Shown: in pieces, positions 3,501-30,955 of the stretch
Layout: each line of letters opens with the position of its first letter
Position numbering within the stretch: position 1 is the first letter of the stretch
Virus record (IMG/VR): IMGVR_UViG_3300021959_006312
Coordinates: 1 to 31,283 of that record
Strand: one strand, 5' to 3'
Length of the DNA: 31,283 nt
From: a virus
Lineage: Duplodnaviria; Caudoviricetes
Notes under the pieces: generated by a model
The model's input: the letters and a program-made list of their open reading frames with translations, nothing else
Database searches by the model: none
What the model was told of the DNA's origin: nothing
Position numbers and translations under genes: made by a program

Positions 3501-5537
3501 ACTATTATTCAATTCGTCTGTAAATTTTTTCTGAGGATCTAAGACGTCTTCTATTATTGATTTCATAGTCCTTAGGGCACCTACCGCGTTACCTCCAGCT
3601 CGCTCCATTATGTGATCACCAACGTCGCCTTCTATATCATACATCTTTTTATATCTTTCAGTAAGCTCATCACTGGCCAGAATAGCGTCTCTCATTGATC
3701 GTAGACCCGACAACATATTTACAGGAGTCTCACCAAGTTTTCTAGCTCTAAGCAGAGCGTCGTAAGCAATCTGAGACTGCGCTGCCAAATTCGAGTAAGC
3801 ATTAGCAGCTGCAGTTGTTCGTGCAGTTAACGTTTTATATACAGCATTACTAGCATTGGCAGTCTCATTTAATTGTTCGAAGGTCTTTTCAAGCTCGTCT
3901 ACAGTTTCTGCTAATTTTGCGGATGCTGCATTGGCTTTAGCAGCTGCAGGAGCAAATTTCTCCATAACCCAGGTAACACCCTTCATCATCACATCAAAAG
4001 CACCTATAATAACTGTAATCGCCGTAAAAATGGGTATGGCGAGGGAAATTGCTGTACCCGCTATTCGTGCAGCAGTTGCAGTAGCTCCAAATATTGGGCC
4101 TAGCTTAGCTAATATTTTATGAAACGCGCCTTGATCCTTACCTGCCTCTCCTATTTGTGAGCCATAGTTTGCAAATAACTCCTTAGCTTGTGCCCAGGCT
4201 TCAGCGAATCTTCCAGTACCCAACAAGGTAGAAATTTGTTGCTCATTAGTTAAGTTCTGTTGAGCATTTACTACTCCTTGAATGGTTACCCCAAGGTCTC
4301 TATACGATTTTCTTTGTCCGTCTATTTCTGCTTTTAATCTTCTTGCGCCCTCACTGGCTTCCCCTTCTGCGAGTACCATTTTTTTATGTTTTTTAGTAAG
4401 TTGTCCTAAAGTACCTGCCATAGAAGCTCTTGCAGTATTAAGAGCTTCCTGGATAGGAACTCCGGCCTCTATCTGTTCAGTTACTTTAGCAAAAGCAGGG
4501 CCAGTATTTTTCAATACAGAGAGAGACTGTATTTGACCTAGTGTACTTGCTTTTACTTGTGCTCTAAGATCTGAATATCTAGATCCGAGATCAGAAAGTC
4601 CGGGTGCAATACTTCTCAATACGGTAGCACCAAAAGCCGTGAAAAACCCTAATAATAGTATCTTAGAGGAAGCGAGGACCTTGAGCAAAGGACTAAAAGC
4701 GAAGTTTACAACATTTAGAAGAGTCTTGCTTAAATCATTGAAAGTAGCCGCTATCTTATCGTAAGCACTTACGTCAACACCTGCTAGAGCGGAAAATTTC
4801 TTTTCACCCTCTTCTAGAACTGCATTCATAAAGGCTTGTCTTCGTTCGAAGTTAGTAAGTTCGGACACTGTTTTGCCAATCTTACTTGCATAGTTTGAAG
4901 TAGCTTCATCTAAGCGAACCATTATGCCCAATTCATCAAGAAGTTCAGGTTCCAGCTTTGTAGCACCCCGGGTTAGTCGGGAAAGAGAGTCGGCGGTATC
5001 TCTGCCAAGAGCAATACTTGCCGTTCTAGCTACTTCTCCTAATCTTTCTATTGAAGAGGAATCAAATCCTGCGCTAATTACAAGGTTCGTAGACCTCATA
5101 GATTCTTCCATAGAAAGAGCGAATCCCGTAGCTTCTTGAAGCCCTTTAGATAAAGTAGTCAAAGCAACACCGGAAGAGACCCCTAAGACCTCCAAACCTT
5201 GTGCAAGTTTTTCTGTTTGTGCGGCTCTTTGTAGAGCACCAAAAAAAGCTGTAATTGCAAAAACACGAGAAGCAATTTCAGCATAGGCAGGAACAAGCCC
5301 GCCTTGAATAAATTGGGCTTGTTTTGCAAAACTCTTTGTGGAGTTAGAAGTAGCCTGTGCTACCCCTTTTTGCTGCTTATTAAACTGAGCGGCGTTATTC
5401 TTTTGAGACTTCGACATTCTCTCGGTAGCGCCGGTCGCTCGATTAGCTGAGGAAGTTACCCCATCGAGTTTCTTTTCGACTACTTGTAAGCCCTTGTCTG
5501 TTACAATAACTTCAAAAAGTATTGAATTATTTGCCAC
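546..5537 (-). CDS. Tail tape measure protein (T5 pb2-like)
   Basis: 1663 aa, Ala/Lys/Glu-rich coiled coil. N-terminal TMP motif (RLTRGATKLEPELLDELGI), hydrophobic segments, C-terminal YVVGEQGPELFVP motif. Follows the chaperone pair. Confidence 0.92.
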   Translation of the reverse strand: MANNSILFEVIVTDKGLQVVEKKLDGVTSSANRATGATERMSKSQKNNAAQFNKQQKGVAQATSNSTKSFAKQAQFIQGGLVPAYAEIASRVFAITAFFGALQRAAQTEKLAQGLEVLGVSSGVALTTLSKGLQEATGFALSMEESMRSTNLVISAGFDSSSIERLGEVARTASIALGRDTADSLSRLTRGATKLEPELLDELGIMVRLDEATSNYASKIGKTVSELTNFERRQAFMNAVLEEGEKKFSALAGVDVSAYDKIAATFNDLSKTLLNVVNFAFSPLLKVLASSKILLLGFFTAFGATVLRSIAPGLSDLGSRYSDLRAQVKASTLGQIQSLSVLKNTGPAFAKVTEQIEAGVPIQEALNTARASMAGTLGQLTKKHKKMVLAEGEASEGARRLKAEIDGQRKSYRDLGVTIQGVVNAQQNLTNEQQISTLLGTGRFAEAWAQAKELFANYGSQIGEAGKDQGAFHKILAKLGPIFGATATAARIAGTAISLAIPIFTAITVIIGAFDVMMKGVTWVMEKFAPAAAKANAASAKLAETVDELEKTFEQLNETANASNAVYKTLTARTTAAANAYSNLAAQSQIAYDALLRARKLGETPVNMLSGLRSMRDAILASDELTERYKKMYDIEGDVGDHIMERAGGNAVGALRTMKSIIEDVLDPQKKFTDELNNSNLAATVAAKGIRDLYNSIQNKTPFDQAVADVTDLSKNLNNLAKRSGKESVQAFTNLQEQLDKGSYNQIIDPHILKMLKDASVTTEEQAKNLFAMATIAVKRKKDSLILFQTESNIAKSKERTAQAELTKLQEGVQTRETIAAQLMHEDQILQQQKKAVDAKLKIAKDTLETTGETALTAEQRVVQEQLILALSTEGEAITAKRLEKEETALATEIKLTAKTKEKIDLEKQVLNQILAGVDAKKKTIELDDKILSSATKLANARKGLAASETATQEFDRVKENFEVTKKGEVTLSKAKKSLMDTEKETKLMLIELQMDVLAMELTVLSKKIAANKEMDEGTKARLQNELSQSIANVGKEGTLRKRLRENLTKEMGLQEEEQIAGYYTARNAAEKELIDTRLQAAELENDLAKRLTDLNSQIFDSKMSTIDSERKIEEEKLKVQNSQTRADRRRVLSVKQIAELDQKTLEKKKKLIEQDTKNKLNALDQEFILLRAKREQTKAEQELLIESVRLILGDKRADELKSKLDTAFIASGKLLDMAETASRERIKALGESLISDLKAAAKDSVKEASATDFLAGTSSSKFLQEINDAKDRGAVTRSNAQTYSEEQNAAVASAQTKVDGIQSGKDAEGNNIPLDEIDALNKGLEEAKIRAKDAEIGIKQAFIAATLEGISPMLNRLRELGPQGELVATVVESTAVMGMAFLELAKSGNTAADKLAAVGAIVQGIGAIMAASSKAKIAGIDKEIDAEKRRDGKSKESLAKISALEKKKERAKRKAFEQNKKIAMAETIINTAAAVMAQKGNWPMMILMGLLGAAQLAIIAGTSYQGGGSAAGASTPSSIGMGERSNKVDVSKQASGAELSALRGGSTANIGGQNFMPPPAFMGAQYRAQGGPTAGYVVGEQGPELFVPDVPGKIVPNDEMKQSQPVNVNFTIQAIDTTNFNDALVTQRGNIISMIREAANTYGETFLESVNDTAITTGQGKL

Positions 5538-7674: not shown

Positions 7675-8988
7675 CTATGCCTTATAAGCTATAAGACTTT
7701 CATTGGTCTTATCTACGTCACCGCCCTGTACTTGTCCGTGGAAATTAACTTCCAAAGTAAGTAGATCCTCAACATTAATTGTAGGTATTTCAAGGTGCGC
7801 TGAAGGCATAGTAAGCTGAAGCCTAGGAGTGTCTATTGAGCTTCCCCCTATATTTACTTCGAGTAAGTGAGTATTACGAATGGTTGTTGTATCCTCTACC
7901 AAATCCTTAAATAATTCTCCAGATTTACTATTTGAAATATCATTATCTAAGTAACAAGTCATACTGCCACTCACACTTCTTGCCCCTGTAATATTGGCTA
8001 AAGGAGCGTTTACTACACCTAGTTCTTCTGGGGTAAGATAATTGACATTATTCTCGATAGTGAAGCTGCCTCCAGTAAGAACTACTGTATAAGCATCGGA
8101 GTCACTTGTATTTATTAATCTTACCGTGGAGATTCTGTTACGAATAAAGTTATCCGTATCGGTCAGTCCGCCCGTAATAGGGGTAGGAGAAGTAATAGCA
8201 CTAGGTGCGCTTGTGCCAGCATCTGTCAAAGTTTTGGCAAAGCCGCTCCAAGCAATGGTTGCAATACCGTCAATATCAAAATCAATAGAAGCAGAGTTAA
8301 CTACTGAATCGGCTAATTTATAATATTGCTTATTACTGCCGTCTTCGAAAGCTACATAAATATCCCATCCATCTGAAAAAGAAGAAACGTTTGACTTAGA
8401 TAGGTTAAATACGTTTCTATCATCCTCAAAAGCGTCCGAAGGAGTACCATTACTAGCATCCGTAGTAATTAGGTTAATCTCATCAGTTTCAGTAACTACA
8501 CCTCCGGAACCTGTAATAGCTACACCATTGTAAATAAATTTAGCTCCTGCAGTAGCCGCCGAAGCTCCTATAGCTGTCCAATTAACAGAGCTTCCTGCGG
8601 TGGTAATTTCATATATAGGACCTTTAGGTTGTAATCCTGCTGTATGTACATTAATACTTGTTACTTCTGTAAAAGCAGAAGACCTAAAAACTCCCGAAGA
8701 ATGATGTGTCGCACCGAGCATCATAGCCCAGAGAGCTTCTTCCGGAGCGCGAACACTACCAGAACTTTTGAAAGGACGGGCGTATGTACTCATAGACCAT
8801 TCTACAGGAGCTAAACTATCGTTAAAAAGCAGTCGAGCTCTACGAGAAGTAGAACCCGCTTCATTGATTGTAATTTCTGAAGAATTGATTGATTGAGTAA
8901 AGGAAAAACCGTCCAAAACTGACAACTGCCAAACAGCTCCTCCACCTACTACGTAAACCGTAGCATTTCTTGTAAATTGTAAAGCCAT
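7675..8988 (-). CDS. Major tail tube protein, paralogue B (T5 pb6-like)
   Basis: 437 aa. Motifs WQLSVLDGFSFTQ, DFDIDGIATIAWSG and NNVNYLTPEELGVVN...TGARSVSGSMTCYL resemble T5-type tail tube proteins. Confidence 0.85.
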   Translation of the reverse strand: MALQFTRNATVYVVGGGAVWQLSVLDGFSFTQSINSSEITINEAGSTSRRARLLFNDSLAPVEWSMSTYARPFKSSGSVRAPEEALWAMMLGATHHSSGVFRSSAFTEVTSINVHTAGLQPKGPIYEITTAGSSVNWTAIGASAATAGAKFIYNGVAITGSGGVVTETDEINLITTDASNGTPSDAFEDDRNVFNLSKSNVSSFSDGWDIYVAFEDGSNKQYYKLADSVVNSASIDFDIDGIATIAWSGFAKTLTDAGTSAPSAITSPTPITGGLTDTDNFIRNRISTVRLINTSDSDAYTVVLTGGSFTIENNVNYLTPEELGVVNAPLANITGARSVSGSMTCYLDNDISNSKSGELFKDLVEDTTTIRNTHLLEVNIGGSSIDTPRLQLTMPSAHLEIPTINVEDLLTLEVNFHGQVQGGDVDKTNESLIAYKA

Positions 8989-8999
8989 TTTATTTCTCC

Positions 9000-10388
9000 T
9001 TAGCTATTATATATAATAGTTGCTTCGTTTGTTAGGTCAACGTTACCGCCGCTAACTTGCCCGTGGAAATTAATCTCTAAGGTAAGTAAGTCTTCGACAT
9101 TAATAGTAGGTACTTCCAAATGTGCAGTCGGCAAATCCAGATAAACTCTGGGGCCCGCTGAGGTTCCTCCCATTTGAAGTGTCATATCAAAAACATTTCT
9201 GATAGTAGTTGTATCCGCGACTAAGTCTGCAAATAATTTGCCTGACTTCTCTCCTGCGGTATCATTGTCTAAGTAACAAGTCATACTACCACTAATGCTT
9301 CGTGCGCCAGTAATATTAGCTAAAGGAGCGTTTACTACGCCTAATTCTTCTGGAGTGAGATAATTAATATTATTTTCTAGGGTTAAATTGCCTCCTGTAA
9401 GCACAAGATTGTAGTCTAAAGAGCCTGCTGTATTTTGCAGGGTAACTGTAGATATTCTATTCCTAATAAAATTAGTTGTTGTATTCAATCCTGTATTAAT
9501 AACCACTTCTCCAGCAGTTACTTGAGCAGCTTTTAAACTACCTAATGTGCCCCCAGAAGAGAAACTTCCGTTTTCAGCACTAGCGTAAGAAACGGTTGTG
9601 GAAGTTAGAGCAGTAATTAGGGCCCCTGCAGGAGTTTTTAAACTGCCTGAAGTAGCTGTGTTATAGCCTGCAGGATTCATGCCTTCTACATAGATTCTTT
9701 GTCCTACTCGGAAACCTGTAGTAGCTCCAACGGTCAAGGTAGCTACTGAACCATTTCCTGAGGCTCCCGTAACAGCTTGCCCAACCGGCAATACAAAACC
9801 GGGTTTAACAGTGCTTTCATCTCCCAATTGTTTTGCAAAACCACTCCAAGAGATAGTTGCAATACCATCAATATCAAAGTCCATCGAAACAGAGTTAACT
9901 ACAGAACTCTGTAGTTTGTAATATTGAATGTTAGTGCCGTCTTCGAAACCGAAATAGATATTCCAATTATCGGAGAAAGAAGAAACGTTTGAGTTGTTAA
10001 AATTAAAAGTATTCGTACCATTAGTTACAGCATTTACTGCAGGACTTGAACTAGTGCCAGAAAATACTTTAGTAGTGTTGTTGTAATCATTAGCTCCAAG
10101 CGACATAGCCCAAAGAACGTCTTCAGGTGCTCTTGTTTTAGAAGAGTCTGTGAAAGGACGCGCATAAGTACTCATAGACCACTCTACAGGAGCCAGACTA
10201 TCATTAAAAAGCAGTCGAGCTCTACGAGAGGTGGAGCCTGCTTCGTTGATTGTGATTTCCGAAGAGTTGATTGATTGGGTGAACGAAAAACCGTCTAAAA
10301 CAGATAACTGCCAGCCATTTTTATGGTAGCCGTTAGCGTCTAGAAGTTCTACGTATACGGTAGCGTTTCTTGTAAATTGTAAAGCCAT
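9000..10388 (-). CDS. Major tail tube protein, paralogue A (T5 pb6-like)
   Basis: 462 aa, same motifs as paralogue B, directly after the tail terminator, AGGAG RBS. Confidence 0.88.
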   Translation of the reverse strand: MALQFTRNATVYVELLDANGYHKNGWQLSVLDGFSFTQSINSSEITINEAGSTSRRARLLFNDSLAPVEWSMSTYARPFTDSSKTRAPEDVLWAMSLGANDYNNTTKVFSGTSSSPAVNAVTNGTNTFNFNNSNVSSFSDNWNIYFGFEDGTNIQYYKLQSSVVNSVSMDFDIDGIATISWSGFAKQLGDESTVKPGFVLPVGQAVTGASGNGSVATLTVGATTGFRVGQRIYVEGMNPAGYNTATSGSLKTPAGALITALTSTTVSYASAENGSFSSGGTLGSLKAAQVTAGEVVINTGLNTTTNFIRNRISTVTLQNTAGSLDYNLVLTGGNLTLENNINYLTPEELGVVNAPLANITGARSISGSMTCYLDNDTAGEKSGKLFADLVADTTTIRNVFDMTLQMGGTSAGPRVYLDLPTAHLEVPTINVEDLLTLEINFHGQVSGGNVDLTNEATIIYNS

Positions 10389-16460: not shown

Positions 16461-16833
16461 GTTGTTTTTCTCTTTGTATTTCTACCCAGCGCATTTGCTT
16501 TTTGGCCGTATGAAGTGGTGGATTACGGCCGTAAATGCTATGAAGCTTGAGGTGATGATCATGGCAAAGAGTGACTGTATCATTATACAGCTCTTGCCAA
16601 TTATCGTCTATAAACTCGTCTCTCCAAATAATCAGATACTCATCTGTATAGTGTTCGGGACGAAGTTGTTGTTTCTCTTTAATCCATTTATGGTACAATG
16701 GAGCTAAAGTAAAGTAATGGTGAAAATCTAATTTAATCTTGACTCCGCAAATCTCGCAAGAGGAGGCTTTTTCATACTTAGCTTTTGCTTTATCCCTAAT
16801 GTATTTTATCGGATCTCTTTTTAGCTCTACCAT
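16447..16833 (-). CDS. HNH endonuclease (packaging-associated / nicking)
   Basis: CEICG...LDFHH...TVTLCHDHHLKLH, located between TerL and portal as in T5. Confidence 0.85.
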   Translation of the reverse strand: MVELKRDPIKYIRDKAKAKYEKASSCEICGVKIKLDFHHYFTLAPLYHKWIKEKQQLRPEHYTDEYLIIWRDEFIDDNWQELYNDTVTLCHDHHLKLHSIYGRNPPLHTAKKQMRWVEIQREKQHGMV

Positions 16834-16841
16834 TTTTATAA

Positions 16842-16870
16842 ATTATATATTCGGGTTAGTTGAAAGTCAA
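16842..16870 (-). promoter_or_regulatory. Sigma70 promoter, near-leaderless transcript
   Basis: TTGACT-17-TATAAT with an A-tract UP element. The ATG lies 8 nt after the -10. Confidence 0.8.
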
Positions 16871-16890
16871 GAATTATTTTTTCGTTACGT

Positions 16891-18171
16891 TTAAAATGTT
16901 GGCGCGTTCTCTTCAAAACTATAAAGTGCGTATCTCAATGCATCCGCCATATGAGAAGAAGAGTCATGTACCGGCTTCTCACGTATTAAGTTAGGGTTTG
17001 GATCCCACCTGTACTGGTCAAGACTACGAAGAACCTCTGTACAGCTTTGATCTACTATTAAGCGACCATTGTCAACAAGACTAGCTACATGCCCTATTCC
17101 ATCTACCACAGATTTTTTAGCGTTTATAGTAGAAATATCGTACTGCTGCGCAAAGTCAAATCTTGTCTGAGCCGCCGCAGCATCAATAAAGCAGTAATCT
17201 ACTTCTCTTCTATCAATAATTTCAGCTAAGAAACCTGCATGTTCTTCTGTTGTTCTCTCTGCGGCATAATACTCTTCCATTAAATAGTATTTATCCCCGT
17301 CATAAGCTAAACAGCAAAAAGCGGTTGGATCTTTAAAACCTACGTCAAGTCCTGAGATAATATCACAACCTGTAAAATCTTTTTCTGATAAGTCAGCTAT
17401 ACAGTTATCGTAATCAAAGTTCCATACTTGCCCTTCGAAGATATTAAAGTCTGCTTCATATTCTTGGGAGAACTCTGCTTGACTCATAGAACGACGAGCT
17501 TCTGCAATATCAGATTCCGATGCTCGAGGATTATCTTGCCAAGTTGCTTTTATACTTACCCACTCATCAAATTCATCAGTAAAGCCACGATTATAAAAAC
17601 GACTAAACCAATTATTCCTTCCGCGAGGAGTACTAATAAATAAAGCTTTAGACCCCGGCTTGTCAAGAGTAGGTCTGATGGCAACATTGAAGGCAGTTTC
17701 TCCATCTGCCAATGCCGCTTCATCGAAGAGAACAAAGTCATAGCTTCTTCCTACAACGGAATCAATTTGATTCACGGAACCGAGTCTAATTGTAGACCCA
17801 TTAGTGAGTTCAATTACTCTATCTTTTGCGTTATCTCTCGCTACTTCCAGGTCAAAATGTTTTATAAGATTTCTTTGGAGATCAAAAGAAATGTTACTAA
17901 GGTTGTAATTAGGAGACACAATAAGTACATGGCATCCCGGTACGAGGGCGACACACTGGGCAATAATGTTACCAATATATGTTTTTCCTTGCCGCCTACT
18001 AAGAGCACCAACAATAAAGCGATACTTATCATTATTAATAGCATTGATTAAAGCCCTCTGTGAAGGTATAGCCTCTATACCTAATAGTTCTAAATAACTT
18101 TCAATAGGGACTTTTAAAAAGCTCCCTTTTATTATACTTTCTTGGTAGATGTCTCTTCGACTGACTTCCAT
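16891..18171 (-). CDS. terL: Terminase large subunit
   Basis: Walker A SRRQGKT, Walker B FVLFDEAA, coupling motif ISTPRG, RNase H-like GLDVGFKD and HMADALRY. Start moved to MEVSRR at 18171. Confidence 0.95.
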   Translation of the reverse strand: MEVSRRDIYQESIIKGSFLKVPIESYLELLGIEAIPSQRALINAINNDKYRFIVGALSRRQGKTYIGNIIAQCVALVPGCHVLIVSPNYNLSNISFDLQRNLIKHFDLEVARDNAKDRVIELTNGSTIRLGSVNQIDSVVGRSYDFVLFDEAALADGETAFNVAIRPTLDKPGSKALFISTPRGRNNWFSRFYNRGFTDEFDEWVSIKATWQDNPRASESDIAEARRSMSQAEFSQEYEADFNIFEGQVWNFDYDNCIADLSEKDFTGCDIISGLDVGFKDPTAFCCLAYDGDKYYLMEEYYAAERTTEEHAGFLAEIIDRREVDYCFIDAAAAQTRFDFAQQYDISTINAKKSVVDGIGHVASLVDNGRLIVDQSCTEVLRSLDQYRWDPNPNLIREKPVHDSSSHMADALRYALYSFEENAPTF

Positions 18172-18347
18172 TCTGCCCCGCACTCGCATGGATCGCATGC
18201 ACATTCATTACAAGGAGCTCTCTTTTCAAAAGGAGCTTCTTTTATTACAGTCTGTTTTATTCCTGCAGCAGCTTTTGCCTCTTCTTCAGTAGAGTACTTG
18301 GCAGCACTTCCCGCAATTTTCCACATACTTCCTTTTTTAAAAATCAT
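18132..18347 (-). CDS. Small protein with Cys cluster (CNECACDPCEC)
   Basis: 71 aa from MIFKKG. ATGA overlap with the upstream stop and an AAGGA RBS. Confidence 0.65.
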   Translation of the reverse strand: MIFKKGSMWKIAGSAAKYSTEEEAKAAAGIKQTVIKEAPFEKRAPCNECACDPCECGAEWKSVEETSTKKV

Positions 18348-18580
18348 AACTGTCCTTTCATAATCATTCCCGCTAAAAAGAGAATGAGTGCTCCGCCTCC
18401 AGCCCAAACGAGACGATGAAGGTGTAGTACCGAGACCTTTACTTCAGCCCACCTTTCTTTACTTTCTTCTTTCCCTTCTCGGAGTTCATTAAATATTGTT
18501 CTCCATCTTTCTTCACATACAGCTTCATGCTGCAAAAAAGCTATTTTTAAATCTTGCAACTCTTTATTCTGGTGCTCCAA
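18344..18580 (-). CDS. Small coiled-coil plus C-terminal transmembrane protein (XhlA-like architecture)
   Basis: HEAVCEERW coiled coil followed by hydrophobic LVWAGGGALILFLAGMIM. Confidence 0.6.
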   Translation of the reverse strand: MEHQNKELQDLKIAFLQHEAVCEERWRTIFNELREGKEESKERWAEVKVSVLHLHRLVWAGGGALILFLAGMIMKGQL

Positions 18581-18992
18581 GCAACTTCTCCATTAACTTA
18601 CCATAGTTTCCTTCGCCAAAAGGAGAATTGATTTGAACGTTCTGCTGTTTAATGTTCGTAGTATTCGAAGTTTTTCGATGATCTTCTGACACTTTATGAG
18701 CAAGAGCAATTATATCAACTAAATCTTTGCTAGAGTATTGATCGGAGTCACGGGCTTCTTGTATTTTATTTTCAATGACTTCGTCTAGTAATTCTGCAAG
18801 GCGGAAACGGTTACGATAACCTTGGTCGAGGTAGACCGAGTTAATATAATCTTTTACTTCTGATTTCTCAAGTATCTCGTAGACCTGGTCTGGAGTACAT
18901 CCTAAATGATTTGCAGCAACGACTGCATTGCCAGTGCTTAAATATGCGTTGGCTACTTCAAGATTTTCTGGTGCCATTTTTACGAGTTTCAT
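18564..18992 (-). CDS. terS: Terminase small subunit (T5-like)
   Basis: N-terminal HTH (MAPENLEVANAYL...), YLDQGYRNR, and C-terminal NVQIN...NYGKLMEKL. First gene of the packaging operon. Confidence 0.75.
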   Translation of the reverse strand: MKLVKMAPENLEVANAYLSTGNAVVAANHLGCTPDQVYEILEKSEVKDYINSVYLDQGYRNRFRLAELLDEVIENKIQEARDSDQYSSKDLVDIIALAHKVSEDHRKTSNTTNIKQQNVQINSPFGEGNYGKLMEKLLGAPE

Positions 18993-18998
18993 GAGTCA

Positions 18999-19027
18999 AT
19001 TGTATTCTAATACGAGCGAAAAGTCAA
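18999..19027 (-). promoter_or_regulatory. Sigma70 promoter giving a leaderless terS mRNA
   Basis: TTGACT-17-TACAAT. The ATG begins at the 7th nt after the -10. Confidence 0.75.
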
Positions 19028-19052
19028 GATTTATTTTTGAGGTGGGGGTAGG

Positions 19053-19075
19053 AAAAAGGGCCCGAAGGCCCTTTT
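19053..19075 (-). terminator. Intrinsic terminator (possibly bidirectional)
   Basis: AAAAGGGCC-TTCG-GGCCCTTTTT. Confidence 0.85.
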
Positions 19076-19077
19076 GT

Positions 19078-19650
19078 TTAGAAGTTGTAGAAAAGTCCTA
19101 CCGAATGCTCCGAAGCATCACGTCTATAATCAAAGGTATAACCGAGATTGAACTTATTAAAGGAGCGAGAAACTTTCACGCCTCCATGGTCATAGTCTTC
19201 TGCATGTCCAGCAAAAACTGAAACATCTACAAGATCGAATGAATGGCTTGCATTTATATTATAGTAGTTGTCTTTCGTATCCATATCCTGAAAAGCATAC
19301 GCTGAGAAAGGACCGGCCGCATAACCTACATAAACTTCACGACTCTCATCACCAAGTTCGAGATCATCGCCATAATAATCATACTGAAGAACGCCAACAT
19401 CAAAACCCTTCGCTTTTATGCCAAAAGCATAGTTTGCTTCTGTATGTACATCACGAGCGACGTCCACCTGGCTTGCCCAAAAAGAAACATAAAAATTTTC
19501 TGAGGAAGCAGTAATACCTACCTGCAACGCAGGGTCTTCACCCTGAGAGAGACCCCTAAAAACATATTGGGATGTTGCTCCTACAGAGCCGTTGATTTCA
19601 GCAAAAGCTGGTAAAGTAAAAAACGCAAGAAATGCGAGTAAGTATTTCAT
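19078..19650 (-). CDS. Outer-membrane beta-barrel, TorF / Gcw_chp (TIGR02001)-like putative porin
   Basis: Signal peptide ending AFA, family-like motif GSVGATSQYVFRGLSQ...PALQ, alternating aromatic strands, C-terminal YNF. Confidence 0.85.
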   Translation of the reverse strand: MKYLLAFLAFFTLPAFAEINGSVGATSQYVFRGLSQGEDPALQVGITASSENFYVSFWASQVDVARDVHTEANYAFGIKAKGFDVGVLQYDYYGDDLELGDESREVYVGYAAGPFSAYAFQDMDTKDNYYNINASHSFDLVDVSVFAGHAEDYDHGGVKVSRSFNKFNLGYTFDYRRDASEHSVGLFYNF

Positions 19651-19671
19651 AAAATGTCTCCATTTTTATTC

Positions 19672-19693
19672 TTGGGAAAATTCATTTTTTCTC
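19672..19693 (-). repeat. 22-bp leader element, copy 1
   Basis: GAGAAAAAATGAATTTTCCCAA, identical to 22231-22252. Confidence 0.9.
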
Positions 19694-19702
19694 CAGAATG
19701 AT

Positions 19703-19731
19703 ATTCTGGCACAGTTCAGCAAAAATGTCAA
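19703..19731 (-). promoter_or_regulatory. Sigma70 promoter of the porin gene
   Basis: TTGACA-17-CAGAAT (suboptimal -10) with an A-tract UP element. The -10 is overlapped by the palindrome CCAGAAT-ATC-ATTCTGG. Confidence 0.55.
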
Positions 19732-19756
19732 GAAATTTTTTTGGTTAGGGGGCAGT

Positions 19757-19778
19757 AAAAAGGGGCCGGAGCCCCTTT
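19757..19778 (-). terminator. Intrinsic terminator after the TonB-dependent transporter gene
   Basis: AAAGGGGC-TCCG-GCCCCTTTTT. Confidence 0.8.
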
Positions 19779-19782
19779 CTTC

Positions 19783-22188
19783 TTAGAAACGATAGGATAC
19801 TTTTGCCTGATAATGCCTTGGCAGCTCAGGTAGAACAACTGTGGTTCCAAAGAGGTCTGGGAAGTTTGCTCGAAAGTAACGCTCATCAGTAACATTCTTT
19901 GCAGCAACAATCAGAGACCAGTTATCAGCTTCGTAGCTCATGCTTAAGTTTACTAGGGTATAGGCGGGAAGGGTAACTGCGAAAGACTGACCAGACGCTA
20001 CAGCCTCTACATCAACTACGCTACCACTAACAGCAATACCATTACCGAAGTCGTAAGTACCAGTAACAGACATGATAGTTTCAGGCATACCAGCTCGAAC
20101 ACCTTCGCTCGGTCCGACAGGAATCAAACCACCAACTTGACCGCCCCACAACAAAGTAGGATCGATTAAAGGTAAATCTGCTTGTCCTAGGAATGAGAAT
20201 TCACTGCCTGCAGCGATCGTCGCCAACATCAGTGCTTCAACATTGCTATAGCCGAATGTCATAAGAAACTTCTCGTTTACGGCCCAACGCACTTCAACTT
20301 CTGTACCTTCTGTCTTTACCGCTTGGTTTACTGTAATAGACTGAGCATTAAAGTCAGTACGTTCCATTTCATAAGAAGATACCGCAAAGTATAAACGATC
20401 GTCTAGTAGACTACCCTTCACTCCATACTCCATTAACTCTGAAGATCCGAAGGCGTTACCCGTAAATACATTGCCAACCTGTAGCTCAGATCCCTGACCC
20501 GCAATCACAGTGTTTTGCTCTGACATTGTAACGTAAGGTACGAAACCTCCAATAGAGTAACTCAAGCTTCCTGACCAGGAAACTCCTGAAGGCTCAGCCG
20601 TTGCACTATTTACAGCAACATCAACACCACCTTCCGAAGAAGTAAAAGCTGAATCAGACTGTGTCTTACCCGCAGGTGTTGTAGACTCCATGTCGATAAC
20701 ATCATAACGTGCACCTAAAAGAAGAGATAGACCGCTCTCATGTGCGAAGTCAGCCATTACACCAAATCCAAGATTTGTGTACTCACCTACATAGTATTCG
20801 CTGTACTCTGAGTCAATTCGAGTTGCCAGTACTCGACGGTCAAGAGCAGTTGAAGGCCCTGTCAGATCACGTCGACTAAAATACTCATTGTAGTAGTCAT
20901 CTCCATGTGTAAACTCAGTTCGTCGAATCGAAGGAGATATTTGTATCGATGTAGTAAGAGAGTCACCATCAAAGACGCGTGAAAGAATCAATTGATCCTC
21001 AATCACAGAAGCGTCGTGAAACTGTGAAAATCCATAAGCATTCTCATTCAAGTTCTCGTATGACTCATAAAACAACTTATTCGTCAAATCCCAAGAGCCA
21101 AGTCCAACATCAATATCAAAGTAGAGAGTATTCACCTTGTTCTCCAGTAAGTCATCAGAAGCGATCAGCGTTGACGACATTGGAAGAATTGCAGTTCCTA
21201 CGTTCTCTAGAATCATATTTGAGTTCTCATAATCAAAACCGAAAGAGGCATCTGATAGAGTTGCCAAATCCATGTCTTTCTGTCCGAAGAAGGCATACAA
21301 AGCAAAAGGATTAATGTTTCCTGCATAGTACTCATCATGCGAAATAGCTCCATCGCCAGAAGTATCAAGAGGCGTTGGAGTTCCTGTAATGTAAGTACCG
21401 GTATCGATCAGATCTTGAGTTAAACGATTCCAGCCAGCGTTTTGGCTACCTTTGTAGTCGTGTACCATGCCACCAAACTGAATTCGAACATTGTCACTCA
21501 AGTCCATGTCAAAAGATGCTTGTACCAGAGATTGACTCACTCCGGGTGCATTTGTGTAAAAGCTATCAGAATTCTCTACTTCTCCATAGAGGTAGTAGCC
21601 GAGAGGTTTTCCACCGATTGCTGCGGGACCTCCAACTTCTGCAGTCAAAACATTTCGGCCCCAGCTGCCTCCTGAGTAAGACAGTTCTCCGACACGCTCC
21701 TCGATGTACGAACCAGTTTCTTCAATACGAGCAGATTTTGGATTAAAGTTGAGATAACCACCAATCTTTGAAGGCCCCATGATGGGAGACGCAGGGCCTC
21801 GAACGATATCTACTCGATCAGAGGCTCCAATCGGAGTAGGGTAGTTACCGGGGTTATCAAGACGACGAATGCCGCGAAAGTAAGTCTCACCAGCAGTACC
21901 ACGAACATCTAAGGAACCTGCAACACCGAAAAATGATTGAGTGAAAGTACCTGGAGCAAGAGCTACGAGTTCATCGATATCTTGCATATTAAAACGATCC
22001 ATCATCTCTTCACTGATGGTTGATGCGGAACGGGGTGTATCTATAATTGATTTTTCAAATCCGAAGACGCTTTCAACACGTTCGCCGGGTAAACTGCCTA
22101 GGTCGCCTTTTACAACGACTTCTTCCATTGCGAATGCACTAGAAGCGACACTCATAAGAAAGACAGTTTGACATGTCTTTTTAAACAT
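19783..22188 (-). CDS. TonB-dependent outer-membrane transporter, full length
   Basis: 801 aa. Signal peptide, TonB box EEVVVKG, plug motifs (DTPRSASTIS; LDVRG; DRVDIVRGPASPIMG...IGGYLNF), barrel end AKNVTDERYF...PRHYQAKVSYRF. Confidence 0.95.
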   Translation of the reverse strand: MFKKTCQTVFLMSVASSAFAMEEVVVKGDLGSLPGERVESVFGFEKSIIDTPRSASTISEEMMDRFNMQDIDELVALAPGTFTQSFFGVAGSLDVRGTAGETYFRGIRRLDNPGNYPTPIGASDRVDIVRGPASPIMGPSKIGGYLNFNPKSARIEETGSYIEERVGELSYSGGSWGRNVLTAEVGGPAAIGGKPLGYYLYGEVENSDSFYTNAPGVSQSLVQASFDMDLSDNVRIQFGGMVHDYKGSQNAGWNRLTQDLIDTGTYITGTPTPLDTSGDGAISHDEYYAGNINPFALYAFFGQKDMDLATLSDASFGFDYENSNMILENVGTAILPMSSTLIASDDLLENKVNTLYFDIDVGLGSWDLTNKLFYESYENLNENAYGFSQFHDASVIEDQLILSRVFDGDSLTTSIQISPSIRRTEFTHGDDYYNEYFSRRDLTGPSTALDRRVLATRIDSEYSEYYVGEYTNLGFGVMADFAHESGLSLLLGARYDVIDMESTTPAGKTQSDSAFTSSEGGVDVAVNSATAEPSGVSWSGSLSYSIGGFVPYVTMSEQNTVIAGQGSELQVGNVFTGNAFGSSELMEYGVKGSLLDDRLYFAVSSYEMERTDFNAQSITVNQAVKTEGTEVEVRWAVNEKFLMTFGYSNVEALMLATIAAGSEFSFLGQADLPLIDPTLLWGGQVGGLIPVGPSEGVRAGMPETIMSVTGTYDFGNGIAVSGSVVDVEAVASGQSFAVTLPAYTLVNLSMSYEADNWSLIVAAKNVTDERYFRANFPDLFGTTVVLPELPRHYQAKVSYRF

Positions 22189-22230
22189 AATAACTCCTTT
22201 AGTTTTCTTCGATCTTTCGATCGGTGGGTT

Positions 22231-22252
22231 TTGGGAAAATTCATTTTTTCTC
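22231..22252 (-). repeat. 22-bp leader element, copy 2
   Basis: Identical to 19672-19693 and at the same offset from its promoter. Confidence 0.9.
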
Positions 22253-22262
22253 AGGAATGCTT

Positions 22263-22291
22263 ATTATAGTTTAAAAAAATTGAAATGTCAA
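22263..22291 (-). promoter_or_regulatory. Sigma70 promoter of the TonB-dependent transporter
   Basis: Perfect TTGACA-17-TATAAT. Confidence 0.85.
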
Positions 22292-22300
22292 GAATTTTAT

Positions 22301-22579
22301 TTAGAAGGTCACCCTGACTTCAGTTTCAAGGGTAGTCTTCTTAAAGTCCTCAGTACTTTCAACTTTTCCCTTAAAAGTAAAGTTTGAGGCTTTTATTTTA
22401 TATCCTACTTCGGCCGAATCTTTTCCTACCTCTCCGTAAAGCTTGGGGGTCTTGTAGCCGATTCGAACATAATTATCCTTGCTTTGTTGAACTCGCAAGT
22501 CGTACTTGTTTTTGTACTCAATATAGGGTGCAGCGTGAGCGGTTGATGTGAATGCGATCATAAAAATAAAAAATTTCAT
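22301..22579 (-). CDS. Small secreted beta-stranded outer-membrane protein
   Basis: Signal peptide (..TAHA/APYIEY), amphipathic beta strands, C-terminal VRVTF (Bam-type terminal Phe), GAGGAG RBS. Confidence 0.7.
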   Translation of the reverse strand: MKFFIFMIAFTSTAHAAPYIEYKNKYDLRVQQSKDNYVRIGYKTPKLYGEVGKDSAEVGYKIKASNFTFKGKVESTEDFKKTTLETEVRVTF

Positions 22580-22599
22580 AGTATTTCTCCTCTGTGAAT

Positions 22600-22655
22600 A
22601 TTATATCATAGTTTTGTTAAGATTTGATAAAGATTGTGTTAATTTTCGGTTAATT
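22600..22655 (-). promoter_or_regulatory. Pho-box-like activator array plus extended -10
   Basis: AATTAAC-CGAA-AATTAAC-ACAA-TCTTTAT-CAAA-TCTTAAC, then 10 nt, then TATAAT. Four half-sites at 11-bp period replace the -35. Confidence 0.6.
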
Positions 22656-22717
22656 TTAGCACCTTTTTGCTTGCAAAAATACCCCAAGTTGCGCAAAAAG
22701 AGGGGTCTCGCCGAGCC

Positions 22718-22766
22718 AAATGAGAATGAGTCTCATTACCGCCCCCTAATGCGAATCATTCGCATT
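22718..22766. promoter_or_regulatory. Two Fur-box-like palindromes
   Basis: AATGAGAATGAGTCTCATT (22719-22737) and perfect 9-1-9 AATGCGAATCATTCGCATT (22748-22766). Confidence 0.5.
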
Positions 22767-22874
22767 CGCATTCGCTATATTTTCGCCCCTTTATTTTTTT
22801 GTTAGCATCTGACGACCAAATAAGGGGGCGCACATTTGGTTATAAGAACGGGCTTCCTTATGCCAAATCGGTAT

Positions 22875-22902
22875 TAGACAAAACTCGAAACTGTGGTAAA
22901 AT
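22875..22902 (+). promoter_or_regulatory. Pre-early-type promoter
   Basis: TAGACA-16-TAAAAT with TG extension. Shares the upstream CCAAATCGGTATT with the promoter at 23126. Confidence 0.6.
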
Positions 22903-22931
22903 CCTACACATACCAACAAGGATATACCGAC

Positions 22932-23093
22932 ATGAAAATTTTTACACTCTTATCTCTGCTTACTCTCTTAATCGTTGCCTGTGGCGTTGGCATCTGGTCG
23001 GCCGCTATTGGTGACTTGTTAGGTGTTGTAATCGCAACCGTAACATTTTTACCGACTGCTGTAGCGGCATTGGCACTATCTCACGAGATATAA
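22932..23093 (+). CDS. Small two-helix membrane protein
   Basis: 53 aa, almost wholly hydrophobic, AAGGA RBS. Confidence 0.6.
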   Translation: MKIFTLLSLLTLLIVACGVGIWSAAIGDLLGVVIATVTFLPTAVAALALSHEI

Positions 23094-23125
23094 CCAAATG
23101 CTATTAGCTTATTCCAAATCGGTAT

Positions 23126-23153
23126 TTGACAAATTTAAAAAACGTGGTATAAT
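23126..23153 (+). promoter_or_regulatory. Strong sigma70 promoter
   Basis: TTGACA-16-TATAAT with extended TG. Confidence 0.8.
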
Positions 23154-23196
23154 ACCACCCATGCAATCAAGCATAACACTAAAAAGGAAAGACACT

Positions 23197-23502
23197 ATGT
23201 CCAACTATACTCCCACCATGATCGCTGAAATGCAATCTGTTGAATCATTCACTTACGAGAGCGCGTCTGCGTTTGCGGAAGCTCACAGCTTGAGCGTTCG
23301 ATCTGTTATCTCAAAGGTTAAACACCTCGGGCTTGACTACACCCCGAAACCCAAAACGGTTTCCTCTGCCGGCCCTCGCGTATCAAAGGCCGATATTGTT
23401 GACGCTATCGTGATAGCGCTTGACGCCGACCCCGAAGCTCTCGCGGGTCTCTCGAAGTCTGACGCTCGGGCATTATCCGCGCTTCTAATGGCGATTCGAT
23501 AA
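23197..23502 (+). CDS. T5 A2/D3-family DNA-binding protein, copy 1
   Basis: 101 aa from MSNYT, AAGGA RBS. Pattern SVRSVISK..LGL.Y.PK...KADIV..I...LAGLSK recalls T5 A2/D3. Confidence 0.65.
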   Translation: MSNYTPTMIAEMQSVESFTYESASAFAEAHSLSVRSVISKVKHLGLDYTPKPKTVSSAGPRVSKADIVDAIVIALDADPEALAGLSKSDARALSALLMAIR

Positions 23503-23708
23503 TGAATCGCCTTGTTTCGGTCTCCTCTTGGATTGGAACCGCGCTTATGGGTGCGGCTCCTTTCCTCATCACTACGGCCCTCGGTCAAGTGATGGCGATG
23601 CTCGGCCTTGCATTATTGAGCTTGCAAGCATACGACACAAAATGTTATAATTTGCTCATATTAAACACTATAGGAATTATCGGTTATGCTTCCAATCTTT
23701 TTATTTGA
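23502..23708 (+). CDS. Small membrane protein
   Basis: 68 aa, three hydrophobic stretches, coupled by TAATG. Confidence 0.65.
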   Translation: MNRLVSVSSWIGTALMGAAPFLITTALGQVMAMLGLALLSLQAYDTKCYNLLILNTIGIIGYASNLFI

Positions 23709-24156
23709 TCTTGACGAAACTGTCATTGACTCGGCTCATCGACAAGGTGAAACGCTAGACGACTGGCGTAGAATGAACACGCCCGACAATGTAGCGAAAG
23801 ATTCAATGTTGCCGCTTGCGGATACTATGGTGCAAGCTATAGCGGAAGGCCTCGACGTTGGTATCTGCACCTCGCGGGTAATGGGTGAGGCCGACACTAC
23901 ATGGCTTGACGTTCGCAACATGCGCCCACGTTTTACGCTCTCGCGTTCTGCGGATGACATGAGAGACGCGGGTATATTCAAGCTATCTAAAATGCACGAT
24001 CTCGCAATTCTGCGCGGCGTGTCCTTTGAGGAAATTCGTCGGCGTGTGATCCTGTGGGATGACAATGCCGATGTGCAAAAAACTTTAAAAAATGCTGGAT
24101 TTCGTGTGATTGATCCTGTACTATATAATCTCAATCGAATGGCTGAGGAGGCCTAA
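23686..24156 (+). CDS. HAD-superfamily phosphatase (PNKP 3'-phosphatase / nucleotidase-like)
   Basis: Motif I FDLDET, motif II CTSR, conserved Lys (IFK), motif IV ILWDDN. Confidence 0.85.
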   Translation: MLPIFLFDLDETVIDSAHRQGETLDDWRRMNTPDNVAKDSMLPLADTMVQAIAEGLDVGICTSRVMGEADTTWLDVRNMRPRFTLSRSADDMRDAGIFKLSKMHDLAILRGVSFEEIRRRVILWDDNADVQKTLKNAGFRVIDPVLYNLNRMAEEA

Positions 24157-24159
24157 ACA

Positions 24160-24810
24160 ATGAAACATTATTATCTGATCGTAGACACTGAAACAACAAA
24201 ACGCGGTACTGTTGCCGATTTTGGTGCGGTATTAATTACCAGACAGGGTGAAATTGTCGAACGTTTCGGCGCAATGGTCTTGAATCATTTCGGCTCGCTT
24301 TCCCTGTTCTCTGATCCTACCGCTCCCGATTCTGCGCTATGGTCTGAACAATCCGCAAAGCGACGAGAGAAGAACTATTATTCTATGCTTGATTCTGGCG
24401 AGCGTTCGATTTCAAGCGTTGGTTTAATCAATCAATGGCTTTCGGGTATCAATGCGCGATATACGCCTGTATTAACTGCCTATAATCTGGCGTTCGATCT
24501 GGGCAAATGTCGAAATACTCGAATCGATTTAGGTGTTTTCGCTCAATCGTTCTGCTTGATGAAAGCCGCCAAGCGTGAGATTGGCACACTTGCGGACTAT
24601 CATGACTTCTGCAACGCTAACGGTTTTTTGACTGCTAAAAGACGCGACCCGTCAATGACTGCTGACACAATGGCTAAATTTATTTTGGGCGCTGATTTAG
24701 AAGACGAGCCGCATACGGCGCTCGAGGATGCACAATTCTATGAGGCCCCTATTCTGCATTACCTGTTGGCCGATATGACTAGAAAGCAAATTCTGGAGGC
24801 AGGAAAATGA
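24160..24810 (+). CDS. DEDDh 3'-5' exonuclease
   Basis: ExoI VDTETT, ExoII AYNLAFD, ExoIII HTALEDA. GAGGAGG RBS. Confidence 0.9.
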   Translation: MKHYYLIVDTETTKRGTVADFGAVLITRQGEIVERFGAMVLNHFGSLSLFSDPTAPDSALWSEQSAKRREKNYYSMLDSGERSISSVGLINQWLSGINARYTPVLTAYNLAFDLGKCRNTRIDLGVFAQSFCLMKAAKREIGTLADYHDFCNANGFLTAKRRDPSMTADTMAKFILGADLEDEPHTALEDAQFYEAPILHYLLADMTRKQILEAGK

Positions 24811-24920
24811 AAACAAAAATACTCGCGGCGCTTTTCAAGGCCTATATCGTTTATTCAATCTGTGCCGACCTAATTTTGGTCGGCGGTATCATCTATCTAA
24901 TTGCGAGGGGCTTATCATGA
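24807..24920 (+). CDS. 37-aa membrane peptide
   Basis: MKTKILAALFKAYIVYSICADLILVGGIIYLIARGLS, with ATGA overlaps at both ends and a GGAGG RBS. Too short for the ORF track. Confidence 0.6.
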   Translation: MKTKILAALFKAYIVYSICADLILVGGIIYLIARGLS

Positions 24921-25537
24921 GCATAAAAAAAGAGCAAGCGAAACTTAATCACAATCTGGAAGGTTTAGCGCATAAAGGAATTTGCGTTGTACTTGAGGGG
25001 CGCGACACTGCCGGAAAATCTAGCACGATCCGCGAGGTGACACACTACCTTAATCCGAAGCATTACTCTGTGCATTTAAGCCAGAAGCCAAGCAAATCAA
25101 CAATGAAAAAATGGCTTTCGTACTGGTCGCGTAGAATGCCCACAAAAAACCAAATTGTGTTCTATGATCGATCATGGTATTCACGCGCTATGGTTCAACG
25201 TCTGAATAATTGGTGCTCTGAAAAGCAATTCACTAATTTTCTTCAAGATCACAAAGATTGGGAAAAATCCAGAAACGTGCATATAATTAAATTCTGGCTT
25301 TCGATTGATGAAAACGAACAGCGCGCGCGTATTGAAAAACGCAAAAAATCACCATTGACCTATTGGAAATTTTCCGCTAATGATGAAAATGCGCTTTCGT
25401 ATTATGACCGCATGACATTATTAAAAGAAAATGTTATCGATTCGGATTGGCATGTGATCGACTACAACAACAAAGAAGAGGGGATATTTTCTCTGCTGTC
25501 AACCCTTAATTCTACACTTGAAAATCTGGAATGCTAA
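24917..25537 (+). CDS. ppk2: Polyphosphate kinase 2 family protein
   Basis: P-loop LEGRDTAGKSSTI, YLNPK, Walker B FYDRSWYSR, IIKFWLSI..EQRARI..RKKSPLTYWKFS..D. Single domain, compact at 206 aa. Confidence 0.92.
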   Translation: MSIKKEQAKLNHNLEGLAHKGICVVLEGRDTAGKSSTIREVTHYLNPKHYSVHLSQKPSKSTMKKWLSYWSRRMPTKNQIVFYDRSWYSRAMVQRLNNWCSEKQFTNFLQDHKDWEKSRNVHIIKFWLSIDENEQRARIEKRKKSPLTYWKFSANDENALSYYDRMTLLKENVIDSDWHVIDYNNKEEGIFSLLSTLNSTLENLEC

Positions 25538-25585: not shown

Positions 25586-25606
25586 AAATGAGAACCATTC
25601 TCATTT
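25586..25606. promoter_or_regulatory. Fur-box-like palindrome
   Basis: AAATGAGAA-CCA-TTCTCATTT. Confidence 0.5.
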
Positions 25607-25610
25607 AGGT

Positions 25611-25626
25611 TGTTTCACGTGAAACA
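25611..25626. other. parS site (ParB-loading palindrome)
   Basis: TGTTTCACGTGAAACA, an exact match to the bacterial chromosomal parS consensus. Confidence 0.8.
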
Positions 25627-25896: not shown

Positions 25897-25925
25897 ATTA
25901 TAGTGCCAAAACGATGCCGTGTCAA
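25897..25925 (-). promoter_or_regulatory. Leftward sigma70 promoter with no downstream ORF
   Basis: Perfect TTGACA-17-TATAAT followed by CGGCGCCG. Confidence 0.8.
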
Positions 25926-30778: not shown

Positions 30779-30855
30779 TGGCGGAATGAATGGGACTTGA
30801 ACCCACAACCTCTGCCGTGACAGGGCAGCGTTCTAACCAATTGAACTACCACTCC
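30779..30855 (-). tRNA. trnD: tRNA-Asp(GTC)
   Basis: Cloverleaf GGAGTGG...CTGCC-CTGTCAC-GGCAG...GGTTCAAGTCC...CATTCC-GCCA. Confidence 0.95.
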
Positions 30856-30861
30856 AAAAAT

Positions 30862-30945
30862 TGGTGGAAGGGGTTGGATTTGAACCAACGAACCCCGAGG
30901 ATCAGATTTACAGTCTGACAGCTTTAACCGCTTGCATACCCTTCC
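30862..30945 (-). tRNA. trnY: tRNA-Tyr(GTA)
   Basis: GGAAGGG...TCAGA-CTGTAAA-TCTGA, long variable arm, GTTCAAATC, ACCA end. Confidence 0.93.
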
Positions 30946-30955
30946 TACTTAAATT

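Follow-up and report, generated by a model that had tools for sequence, protein, structure and literature searches.

Gene content of the locus

The gene considered here encodes a predicted TonB-dependent transporter (TBDT) of 801 residues and is carried by a marine T5-like phage. The window, i.e. the whole stretch of DNA analysed (31,283 nt), is a fragment of such a phage whose minus strand encodes the tape measure, tail tube, p140, p143, head completion, protease-capsid, portal, terL and terS proteins. Three consecutive minus-strand open reading frames (ORFs) coding for 92, 801 and 190 residues follow, flanked by terS on one side and by a divergent plus-strand block on the other (Table 1). 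An earlier note made from the sequence had described them as a cassette of three co-oriented genes, each with a Sec signal peptide and a C-terminal phenylalanine. Their coordinates and common orientation were confirmed. By eye, the three N-termini resemble signal peptides ending in A-x-A and the C-termini end in aromatic-x-Phe or hydrophobic-x-Phe (VRVTF, VSYRF, LFYNF).

The 801-residue protein is, by its domain content and predicted model, a TonB-dependent transporter, and TonB-energised transport is predicted. In the profile searches that the earlier note had proposed, it exceeded the cut-off of the Plug domain PF07715 (45.1 bits, cut-off 23.9). It comprises a signal peptide-like segment (residues 1-20), the TonB-box-like sequence EEVVVKG, a plug (~30-165) and a 22-strand barrel. 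The putative signal peptide and TonB box and the C-terminal phenylalanine were seen by eye and are kept in the alignment. The AlphaFold (AF2) model contains 22 barrel strands with a mean predicted local distance difference test score (pLDDT) of 59.5 and a poorly modelled plug. Its top Foldseek matches are all of TBDT type, at 9-15% identity. No pb5 or Llp family was found among the PHROG and Pfam matches of the three ORFs, in line with the earlier statement that the T5 genes oad and llp are not recognisable here.

The two other proteins appear to come from the viral world. In the same searches, the 190-residue putative porin scored over the cut-offs of TIGR02001 (60.6 bits, cut-off 47.15) and Gcw_chp PF09694 (37 bits, cut-off 24). 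It is predicted to fold as a 12-strand barrel (pLDDT 94.5) whose best fold match is KdgM (Z 17.3, root-mean-square deviation 2.2, 154 aligned residues). The likeness to the 12-stranded porins of the KdgM/NanC type is one of fold; identity is 10% and a common fold gives no cargo. The nearest Atlas clusters of TorF are 89-100% viral, and a recent host origin was rejected, identity to the TorF proteins of four candidate hosts being 24-31%. The 92-residue protein has no Pfam match of its own. Two of its homologues scored 23.6 and 21 bits against PF24653, below the cut-off of 27, and its Atlas score to a PF24653 cluster is 0.94 with 166 shared features, the top clusters being all viral. The score of a homodimer prediction (0.26) was counted neither for nor against a dimer. 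Both proteins are thus predicted accessories of the outer membrane; they would stem from older families in which viruses dominate, and their genes occupy one hypervariable slot.

Table 1. Features at the locus, in window coordinates
Feature	Position	Strand	Basis
Terminase small subunit (terS), left edge of slot	18564..18992	-	phrog_3802, E 4e-28
Terminator-like GC hairpin after TorF, A/T tracts either side	19053..19075	.	by eye; not in terminator scan
TorF/Gcw_chp-family putative porin, 190 aa	19078..19650	-	TIGR02001 and PF09694 over cut-off
Second copy of 29-nt element, before TorF	19672..19700	-	also before TorF in L151, L200
Sigma-70-type promoter-like site of TorF, TTGACA-17-TG-CAGAAT	19703..19731	-	10/12 and TG
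Terminator-like GC hairpin after transporter, A/T tracts either side	19757..19778	.	by eye; not in terminator scan
TonB-dependent transporter (predicted), 801 aa, purine-cluster type	19783..22188	-	Plug PF07715, AF2 model, Foldseek, bacterial homologues
29-nt element just after transporter -10 box	22231..22259	-	27/29 identical to 19672-19700
Sigma-70-type promoter-like site of transporter, TTGACA-17-TATAAT	22263..22291	-	12/12 consensus; conserved in sister phages
Secreted beta-rich protein, 92 aa, Phage_OMP (PF24653)-like	22301..22579	-	Atlas, sub-cut-off homologues, 14-row alignment
Extended -10-like site, TG-A-TATAAT, ahead of 92-aa gene; -35 not convincing	22600..22608	-	by eye; not in promoter scan list

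Integrity of the assembly

The trio was examined for chimerism at its edges. The region is covered by three other assemblies at 99.8-99.9% identity, one of which may be the source sample of the window, and contigs of run X7 span 16500-20415 (depth 28.7) and 20438-22627 (depth 30), the first connecting terL with the transporter and the second leading on to 22627 from within the transporter. At least half of the sequence words of 17500-24500 are present in 14 of the 24 runs listed. An assembly chimera, or a neutral host fragment captured recently, is the alternative that these data refute. It could have accounted for the 85-88% protein identity to bacteria, and no single X7 contig among those listed bridges the right edge. 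That edge is however bridged in L188, L189 and L001, the same slot is occupied in 15 viral contigs, and likeness to 15 bacterial loci at the DNA level is 71-75% and confined to the transporter coding region, far from near-identity extending into intergenic DNA. Promoter and codon use are also of phage type: the GC content at third codon positions of the transporter is 0.35, like that of phage genes (0.30-0.34) and unlike that of host copies (0.52-0.62). The genes are genuinely phage-encoded.

The trio was said to lie between terS and a putative terminal repeat. The gene order is as described, and the repeat is compatible with the DNA depth in run X7, which steps from ~30 to 66-90 to the right of 22865, within the plus-strand block. 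Such a step fits a terminal repeat, or the presence of related phages, and is not proof.

Distribution in phages and the modular slot

The initial set of viral loci with the transporter (n=25) falls into clade A (14 loci, 86-100% identity) and clade B (11 loci, ~60-76%). With L026 added to the former and L152-L154 to the latter, the clades count 15 and 14 viral contigs. The synteny survey that the earlier note had called for shows that the clade A transporter keeps one slot, with terS on one side and the divergent plus-strand block on the other, throughout the 15 T5-like contigs. The window's order of three genes recurs in one other phage (L200/L201). Among the 12 other clade A contigs whose downstream side is visible, a homologue of the 92-residue protein comes after, not before, the transporter in 11, and TorF is found in none. 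This homologue is also kept in three of eight relatives devoid of the transporter. The locus is therefore not a single cassette, as had been proposed, but modular, its TorF and 92-residue genes being gained and lost independently. In L002, terL is only 66% identical and the clade A transporter 90%, which suggests phage-to-phage transfer. None of five tblastn matches in GenBank phages covers 80% of the transporter.

Clade B has another genomic setting, the transporter being directly after nrdA-nrdB. The nrdB gene lies just upstream in 13 of the 14 viral contigs and the 14th starts inside the transporter gene. In L013 and L016 a distant TorF follows the transporter.

In T5, the pb5/llp pair is located next to terS. 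The clade A slot is hypervariable and, judged by analogy of gene order, is the oad-like position of T5, as the earlier note had supposed: the virion gene order is T5-like, the slot sits between terS and a divergent repeat-like block, and in most relatives it holds a variable tail-type gene set ending in a tail-fibre chaperone (PF16778 and phrog_4912 for L004:4129-4605; the chaperones of other relatives were matched by eye). The difference is that the window slot contains full transporter and porin genes rather than a receptor-blocking lipoprotein. The window phage has no tail-type module in this slot. The tail chaperone was also sought in two fragments of phage genomes, whose completeness of 43% and 31% is too low to show absence, and was not found. 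A near-identical IMG/VR contig (L263:1-6510) runs on into a repeat-bearing tail protein of more than 2,170 residues, which may stand in place of the missing module.

Other secreted or membrane proteins are encoded in this part of related genomes. About six secreted-looking genes beside terS, absent from the window phage, are conserved in many distant relatives (L002:15784-19022, L147:5114-8264, L076:2018-5206). In L149, the same slot holds a 314-residue membrane-protein-like gene (3068-4012) directly after the 92-residue homologue, without Pfam, PHROG or NCBIfam match.

Two captures from bacteria and selection in phages

A phylogeny against host transporters, also suggested in the earlier note, places clade A as one branch (support 99) nested among bacteria with purine gene clusters, with L105-L107 as its sister. 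Clade B branches separately (support 100), and purine-cluster loci at 74-76% identity are among its sister group. A single origin of both clades was rejected (p-AU 1.9e-48) in an approximately unbiased (AU) test with 24 rows under LG+G4, the constrained group having been named after the tree was seen. Partial transporter ORFs were left out of the trees, and L252, with a frame error, was also left out of one. By these trees, phages captured the transporter twice, separately. L133, in a metagenome-assembled genome (MAG) labelled Rhodobiaceae, has nrdB upstream and a protein identical to that of phage clade B and was for that reason treated as a mis-binned phage contig.

The ratio of non-synonymous to synonymous substitutions (dN/dS) amounts to 0.045-0.094 in seven clade A pairs and 0.036-0.054 in three clade B pairs; synonymous sites are saturated between phage and host. 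Judged from these ratios, constraint on the transporter is strong and somewhat relaxed in phages. It is an intact, host-derived gene between viral genes and under purifying selection, which are among the features by which an auxiliary metabolic gene (AMG) is recognised. With regions assigned from the AlphaFold model, phage and host L105 share 141 of 145 residues in the plug, 278 of 302 in the outer loops, 249 of 301 in the strands and 23 of 33 in the periplasmic turns. Two bacteria compared in the same way share 136 of 145 plug and 274 of 302 outer-loop residues. Fourteen positions are fixed differently between five phage and nine bacterial rows, 11 of them in strands and three in outer loops. 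As far as the model allows, the ligand-facing parts appear unchanged, which fits kept transport and poorly fits a redesigned phage-binding surface or mere titration of TonB or Bam.

These results bear on a possible receptor role. The transporter could be the receptor of its own or of competing T5-like phages, the phage copy acting as a decoy or diluting the receptor for superinfection exclusion. T5 itself uses the TBDT FhuA, and its llp gene is adjacent to pb5 (PMC9586334). All three window genes are predicted to code for outer-membrane proteins, and in sister phages their slot is taken by the tail-type module. Nevertheless, the outer loops of phage and host are as close as those of two hosts and contain few of the fixed differences. 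The transporter stays 86-92% identical among clade A phages whose adjacent tail-type genes differ wholesale, and in clade B it comes after nrdB. An additional copy of a phage's own receptor would moreover be expected to trap progeny. A receptor role is thus regarded as unlikely. Displacement of the host receptor or competition for TonB and Bam, one of the two functions considered in the earlier note, is disfavoured because phage and host differ no more in plug and outer loops than two bacteria do, and because the second capture lies in a replication module.

Bacterial relatives and probable cargo

The closest bacterial copies (n=15) are 82-88% identical to the window protein and belong to MAGs that carry the label Pseudomonadales, Gammaproteobacteria or Ca. 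Azotimanducaceae/HTCC2089. Next to them are genes for two NCS2 permeases, the allantoinase PuuE, a secreted ADA2-like deaminase, NUP (PF06516), adenosine deaminase, allantoicase, ureidoglycolate lyase and a phosphoribosyltransferase. Purine genes are located within 6 kb at 22 of 40 genome loci, including the 15 closest (at least 82% identity); L133 is one of the remainder. The 74 metagenome loci, which are the best for the family and of which several repeat contigs already counted, comprise 42 purine clusters of varying gene order, 19 phage A loci, 11 phage B loci (L245 being scored as such by its nrdA-nrdB) and two that are too short. Purine clusters thus account for 42 of the 44 non-phage loci. 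Among 401 sampled genomes of the order, 15 had a match at E 1e-100 or better, with a purine gene within 1.5 kb at 11 of 19 loci.

The T5-like lineage therefore probably captured the clade A gene from a purine cluster of the HTCC2089/Azotimanducaceae type, to judge from sequence. In the chromosomal clusters of this type (L105-L119), the transporter is 82-88% and the plug 94-97% identical to those of the phage, which took the transporter alone and gave it a new signal peptide, a phage promoter and phage codon use. Since the bacterial orthologues sit in such clusters, the likely cargo can be narrowed to purine nucleosides or bases. The import of a nutrient was the better of the two functions proposed in the earlier note, and gene context makes it more specific.

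An import AMG could also carry a pterin, a vitamin or some different small molecule, or bring in purine for its nitrogen. This is suggested by the allantoinase, allantoicase and ureidoglycolate lyase genes of the host cluster, by a deeper clade with other neighbours and by the siderophore or iron receptor labels of homologues in databases, though these labels are generic. On the other side, loci with NUP and ADA2-like genes around the transporter differ in gene order, clade B ties the transporter to nrdA-nrdB and iron control is not indicated. Another cargo or use is, on this evidence, rather improbable. The 801-residue protein misses the cut-off of the siderophore-receptor model TIGR01783 (85.4 versus 223.5 bits), and none of the 20 bacterial purine loci scanned contains a Fur-like box, as defined by the consensus. 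Iron control of the window gene was rejected too: the Fur-like palindromes at 22719, 22748 and 25587 belong to the plus-strand block, are found in six relatives without the transporter and are not upstream of the transporter in L002, L003, L005, L010 and L025.

Promoters and a shared leader element

Each gene of the trio was said to have its own promoter. Promoter-like sites bear this out for the transporter, which has a full consensus, and for TorF; the 92-residue gene has only the extended -10-like site read by eye, and no terminator was found after it. The A-tract-CTTGAC style noted at two of the promoters is indeed common to those of terS, 16871 and 7663. It also occurs at 25925, 28783 and 30123, outside virion genes, and so is no marker of late timing.

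The transporter and TorF share a 29-nt leader element. In the examined loci and the window, a set biased towards transporter and TorF loci, all 44 matches (13 distinct, 10 for the transporter and three for TorF) precede these two genes. A promoter-plus-element pattern matches IMG/VR seven times, each time ahead of this transporter or of TorF. The element is absent from 11 terS upstream regions and was not found at host purine clusters. Several meanings were tried and rejected. A host operator is not supported, the core motif occurring in one of four candidate host genomes and not at the purine cluster. Neither is a leader peptide, as the start codon (ATG or GTG) and the frame length vary, nor a conserved RNA hairpin, formed in four of five leaders but not in L002 (z -0.15 to -2.35). 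No Rfam family was found in the slot, and a motif match in L180, inside a gene, is due to chance. In three RNA runs, short pieces 96-100% identical to the phage were found, among them seven in the transporter and one in TorF.

The consensus promoter, matching at 12 of 12 positions, and the element common to two of the three genes would suit mass expression that titrates TonB or Bam and thereby blocks TonB-dependent phages or remodels the envelope, transport being incidental. For this purpose a TonB box or a C-terminal signal would suffice, yet the plug and loops are under purifying selection, and titration is considered very improbable.

Proposed role of the transporter

The reading that we favour, with a probability of roughly 0.6, is that the 801-residue transporter is an AMG that imports purine nucleosides or bases for phage DNA synthesis. 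The gene would be transcribed from its consensus promoter by the host RNA polymerase, and the protein would be exported and inserted by the host Sec and Bam machineries and energised by the host TonB-ExbBD. Its cargo would be handed to the host periplasmic deaminase and NUP protein, then to NCS2 permeases, the phosphoribosyltransferase and finally ribonucleotide reductase. The phage would supply the outer-membrane step alone. The likely reason is either that this step limits uptake when the cargo is as dilute as in seawater, or that the infected host has its own copy switched off. Nucleosides are among the diatom exometabolites taken up by marine bacteria (PMC8027193). A broader proposal, tentative and itself doubtful, is that marine T5-like phages made at least two captures of an energised purine-nucleoside importer, which clade A pairs with a viral porin under one leader element. 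These genes might then form a phage-run outer-membrane uptake regulon that scavenges precursors of DNA from seawater, among them the products of earlier lysis or of host DNA breakdown, and directs them into progeny genomes.

Several observations weigh against a purine importer for DNA synthesis. The host cluster is largely catabolic, so that the benefit could be nitrogen rather than deoxynucleoside triphosphates. The candidate hosts already carry the transporter gene and purF (4/4), so that any gain must lie in level or timing. The host itself, of HTCC2089/Azotimanducaceae type, is inferred from gene ancestry only. At 17 of the 40 genome loci, a deeper clade at 53-58% identity, no purine gene lies within 6 kb and the neighbours are others. 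No family member with a tested substrate was found in the literature searched, and the best solved relatives are 9-15% identical. The transporter is absent from eight more distant relatives whose whole interval is visible, and in clade A it lies beside the tail-type module, not beside nucleotide genes. Its dN/dS in phages exceeds that of three measurable bacterial pairs (0.01-0.02). The RNA pieces also hit terL and other genes, at a depth of 2-5, and could be DNA carry-over. Finally, T5 is reported to excrete free nucleobases (PMC10644984). As to the hosts, purine auxotrophy was rejected as an explanation, given the presence of purF in all four candidates.

If the favoured role is correct, a lytic phage would use an outer-membrane transporter of its own to bring in ready-made precursors of DNA, beyond the recycling of host DNA or boosted synthesis, and dissolved nucleosides would be directly linked to viral yield in the sea. 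The phage-borne transporter is not rare, since 30 of the 74 best metagenome loci are phage, some of them redundant. Its repeated capture hints at the likely cargo of an uncharacterised TBDT family, suggests which hosts uncultured T5-like phages probably have and offers one protein for ligand tests in the laboratory.

Comparison with other phage-borne uptake genes

Nutrient uptake is a known theme among viral AMGs, with pstS in cyanophages and an ammonium transporter in an algal virus. In these cases, as proposed here, a viral gene provides part of the host's uptake of an element that the viral genome requires; the step of the window gene differs in that it is predicted to be energised and to lie at the outer membrane, and its substrate is likely a finished component of DNA. 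TBDTs have been described in phages before. The megaphage Mar_Mega_1 carries a SusC-like TonB-dependent receptor (PMC9723777) and, like the window, is a marine phage with a TBDT proposed as an uptake AMG. In the accessible part of that report the annotation is of carbohydrate type, the host is unknown and neither a donor cluster nor an analysis of selection is given, whereas the window gene has a purine-type donor cluster and two captures. Phages of ammonia-oxidising bacteria carry TBDTs read as import genes or receptors, which, in the available text, are of siderophore and heme types (bioRxiv 10.64898/2026.05.02.722434). A 'TonB-dependent receptor' is also annotated in Polarivirus skadi (PMC10504331). 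Neither a purine-type phage transporter nor this phage group was found in the literature searched, where AMG tables in supplements could list such genes. Phage TonB-dependent receptors are thus already in print; the present gene is real, conserved and captured repeatedly, and its probable purine type would add to the nutrient-uptake AMGs.

Other features of the window

The plus-strand block beside the slot is flanked by Fur-box-like 9-1-9 palindromes (22719-22737, 22748-22766 and 25587-25605), and similar ones exist in relatives with and without the transporter. Beside the third palindrome, repeat-rich non-coding DNA contains a perfect parS-like palindrome (~25611-25626), also present in L002, L010 (two copies) and L025. 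This region may mark a T5-type injection-stop region that uses host DNA-binding proteins. The block encodes a HAD-type phosphatase (phrog_415, 23686-24156), which could take the role of T5 dmp, and a polyphosphate kinase 2-like protein (24917-25537; PF03976 over cut-off, TIGR03707 below) that is kept in the block of relatives. Divergent from the 92-residue gene, a 53-residue hydrophobic ORF with a lipobox-like motif (22932-23093) has no family match. It is unsupported as an Llp analogue, the cysteine not being kept at that position in relatives, which carry other small hydrophobic ORFs at this place.

Elsewhere in the window, two tandem major tail protein genes (7675-8988 and 9000-10388, both phrog_3575) correspond to a single gene in some relatives. 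Genes for tRNA-Asp and tRNA-Tyr lie at 30779-30945, with a third tRNA-like repeat near 30951.

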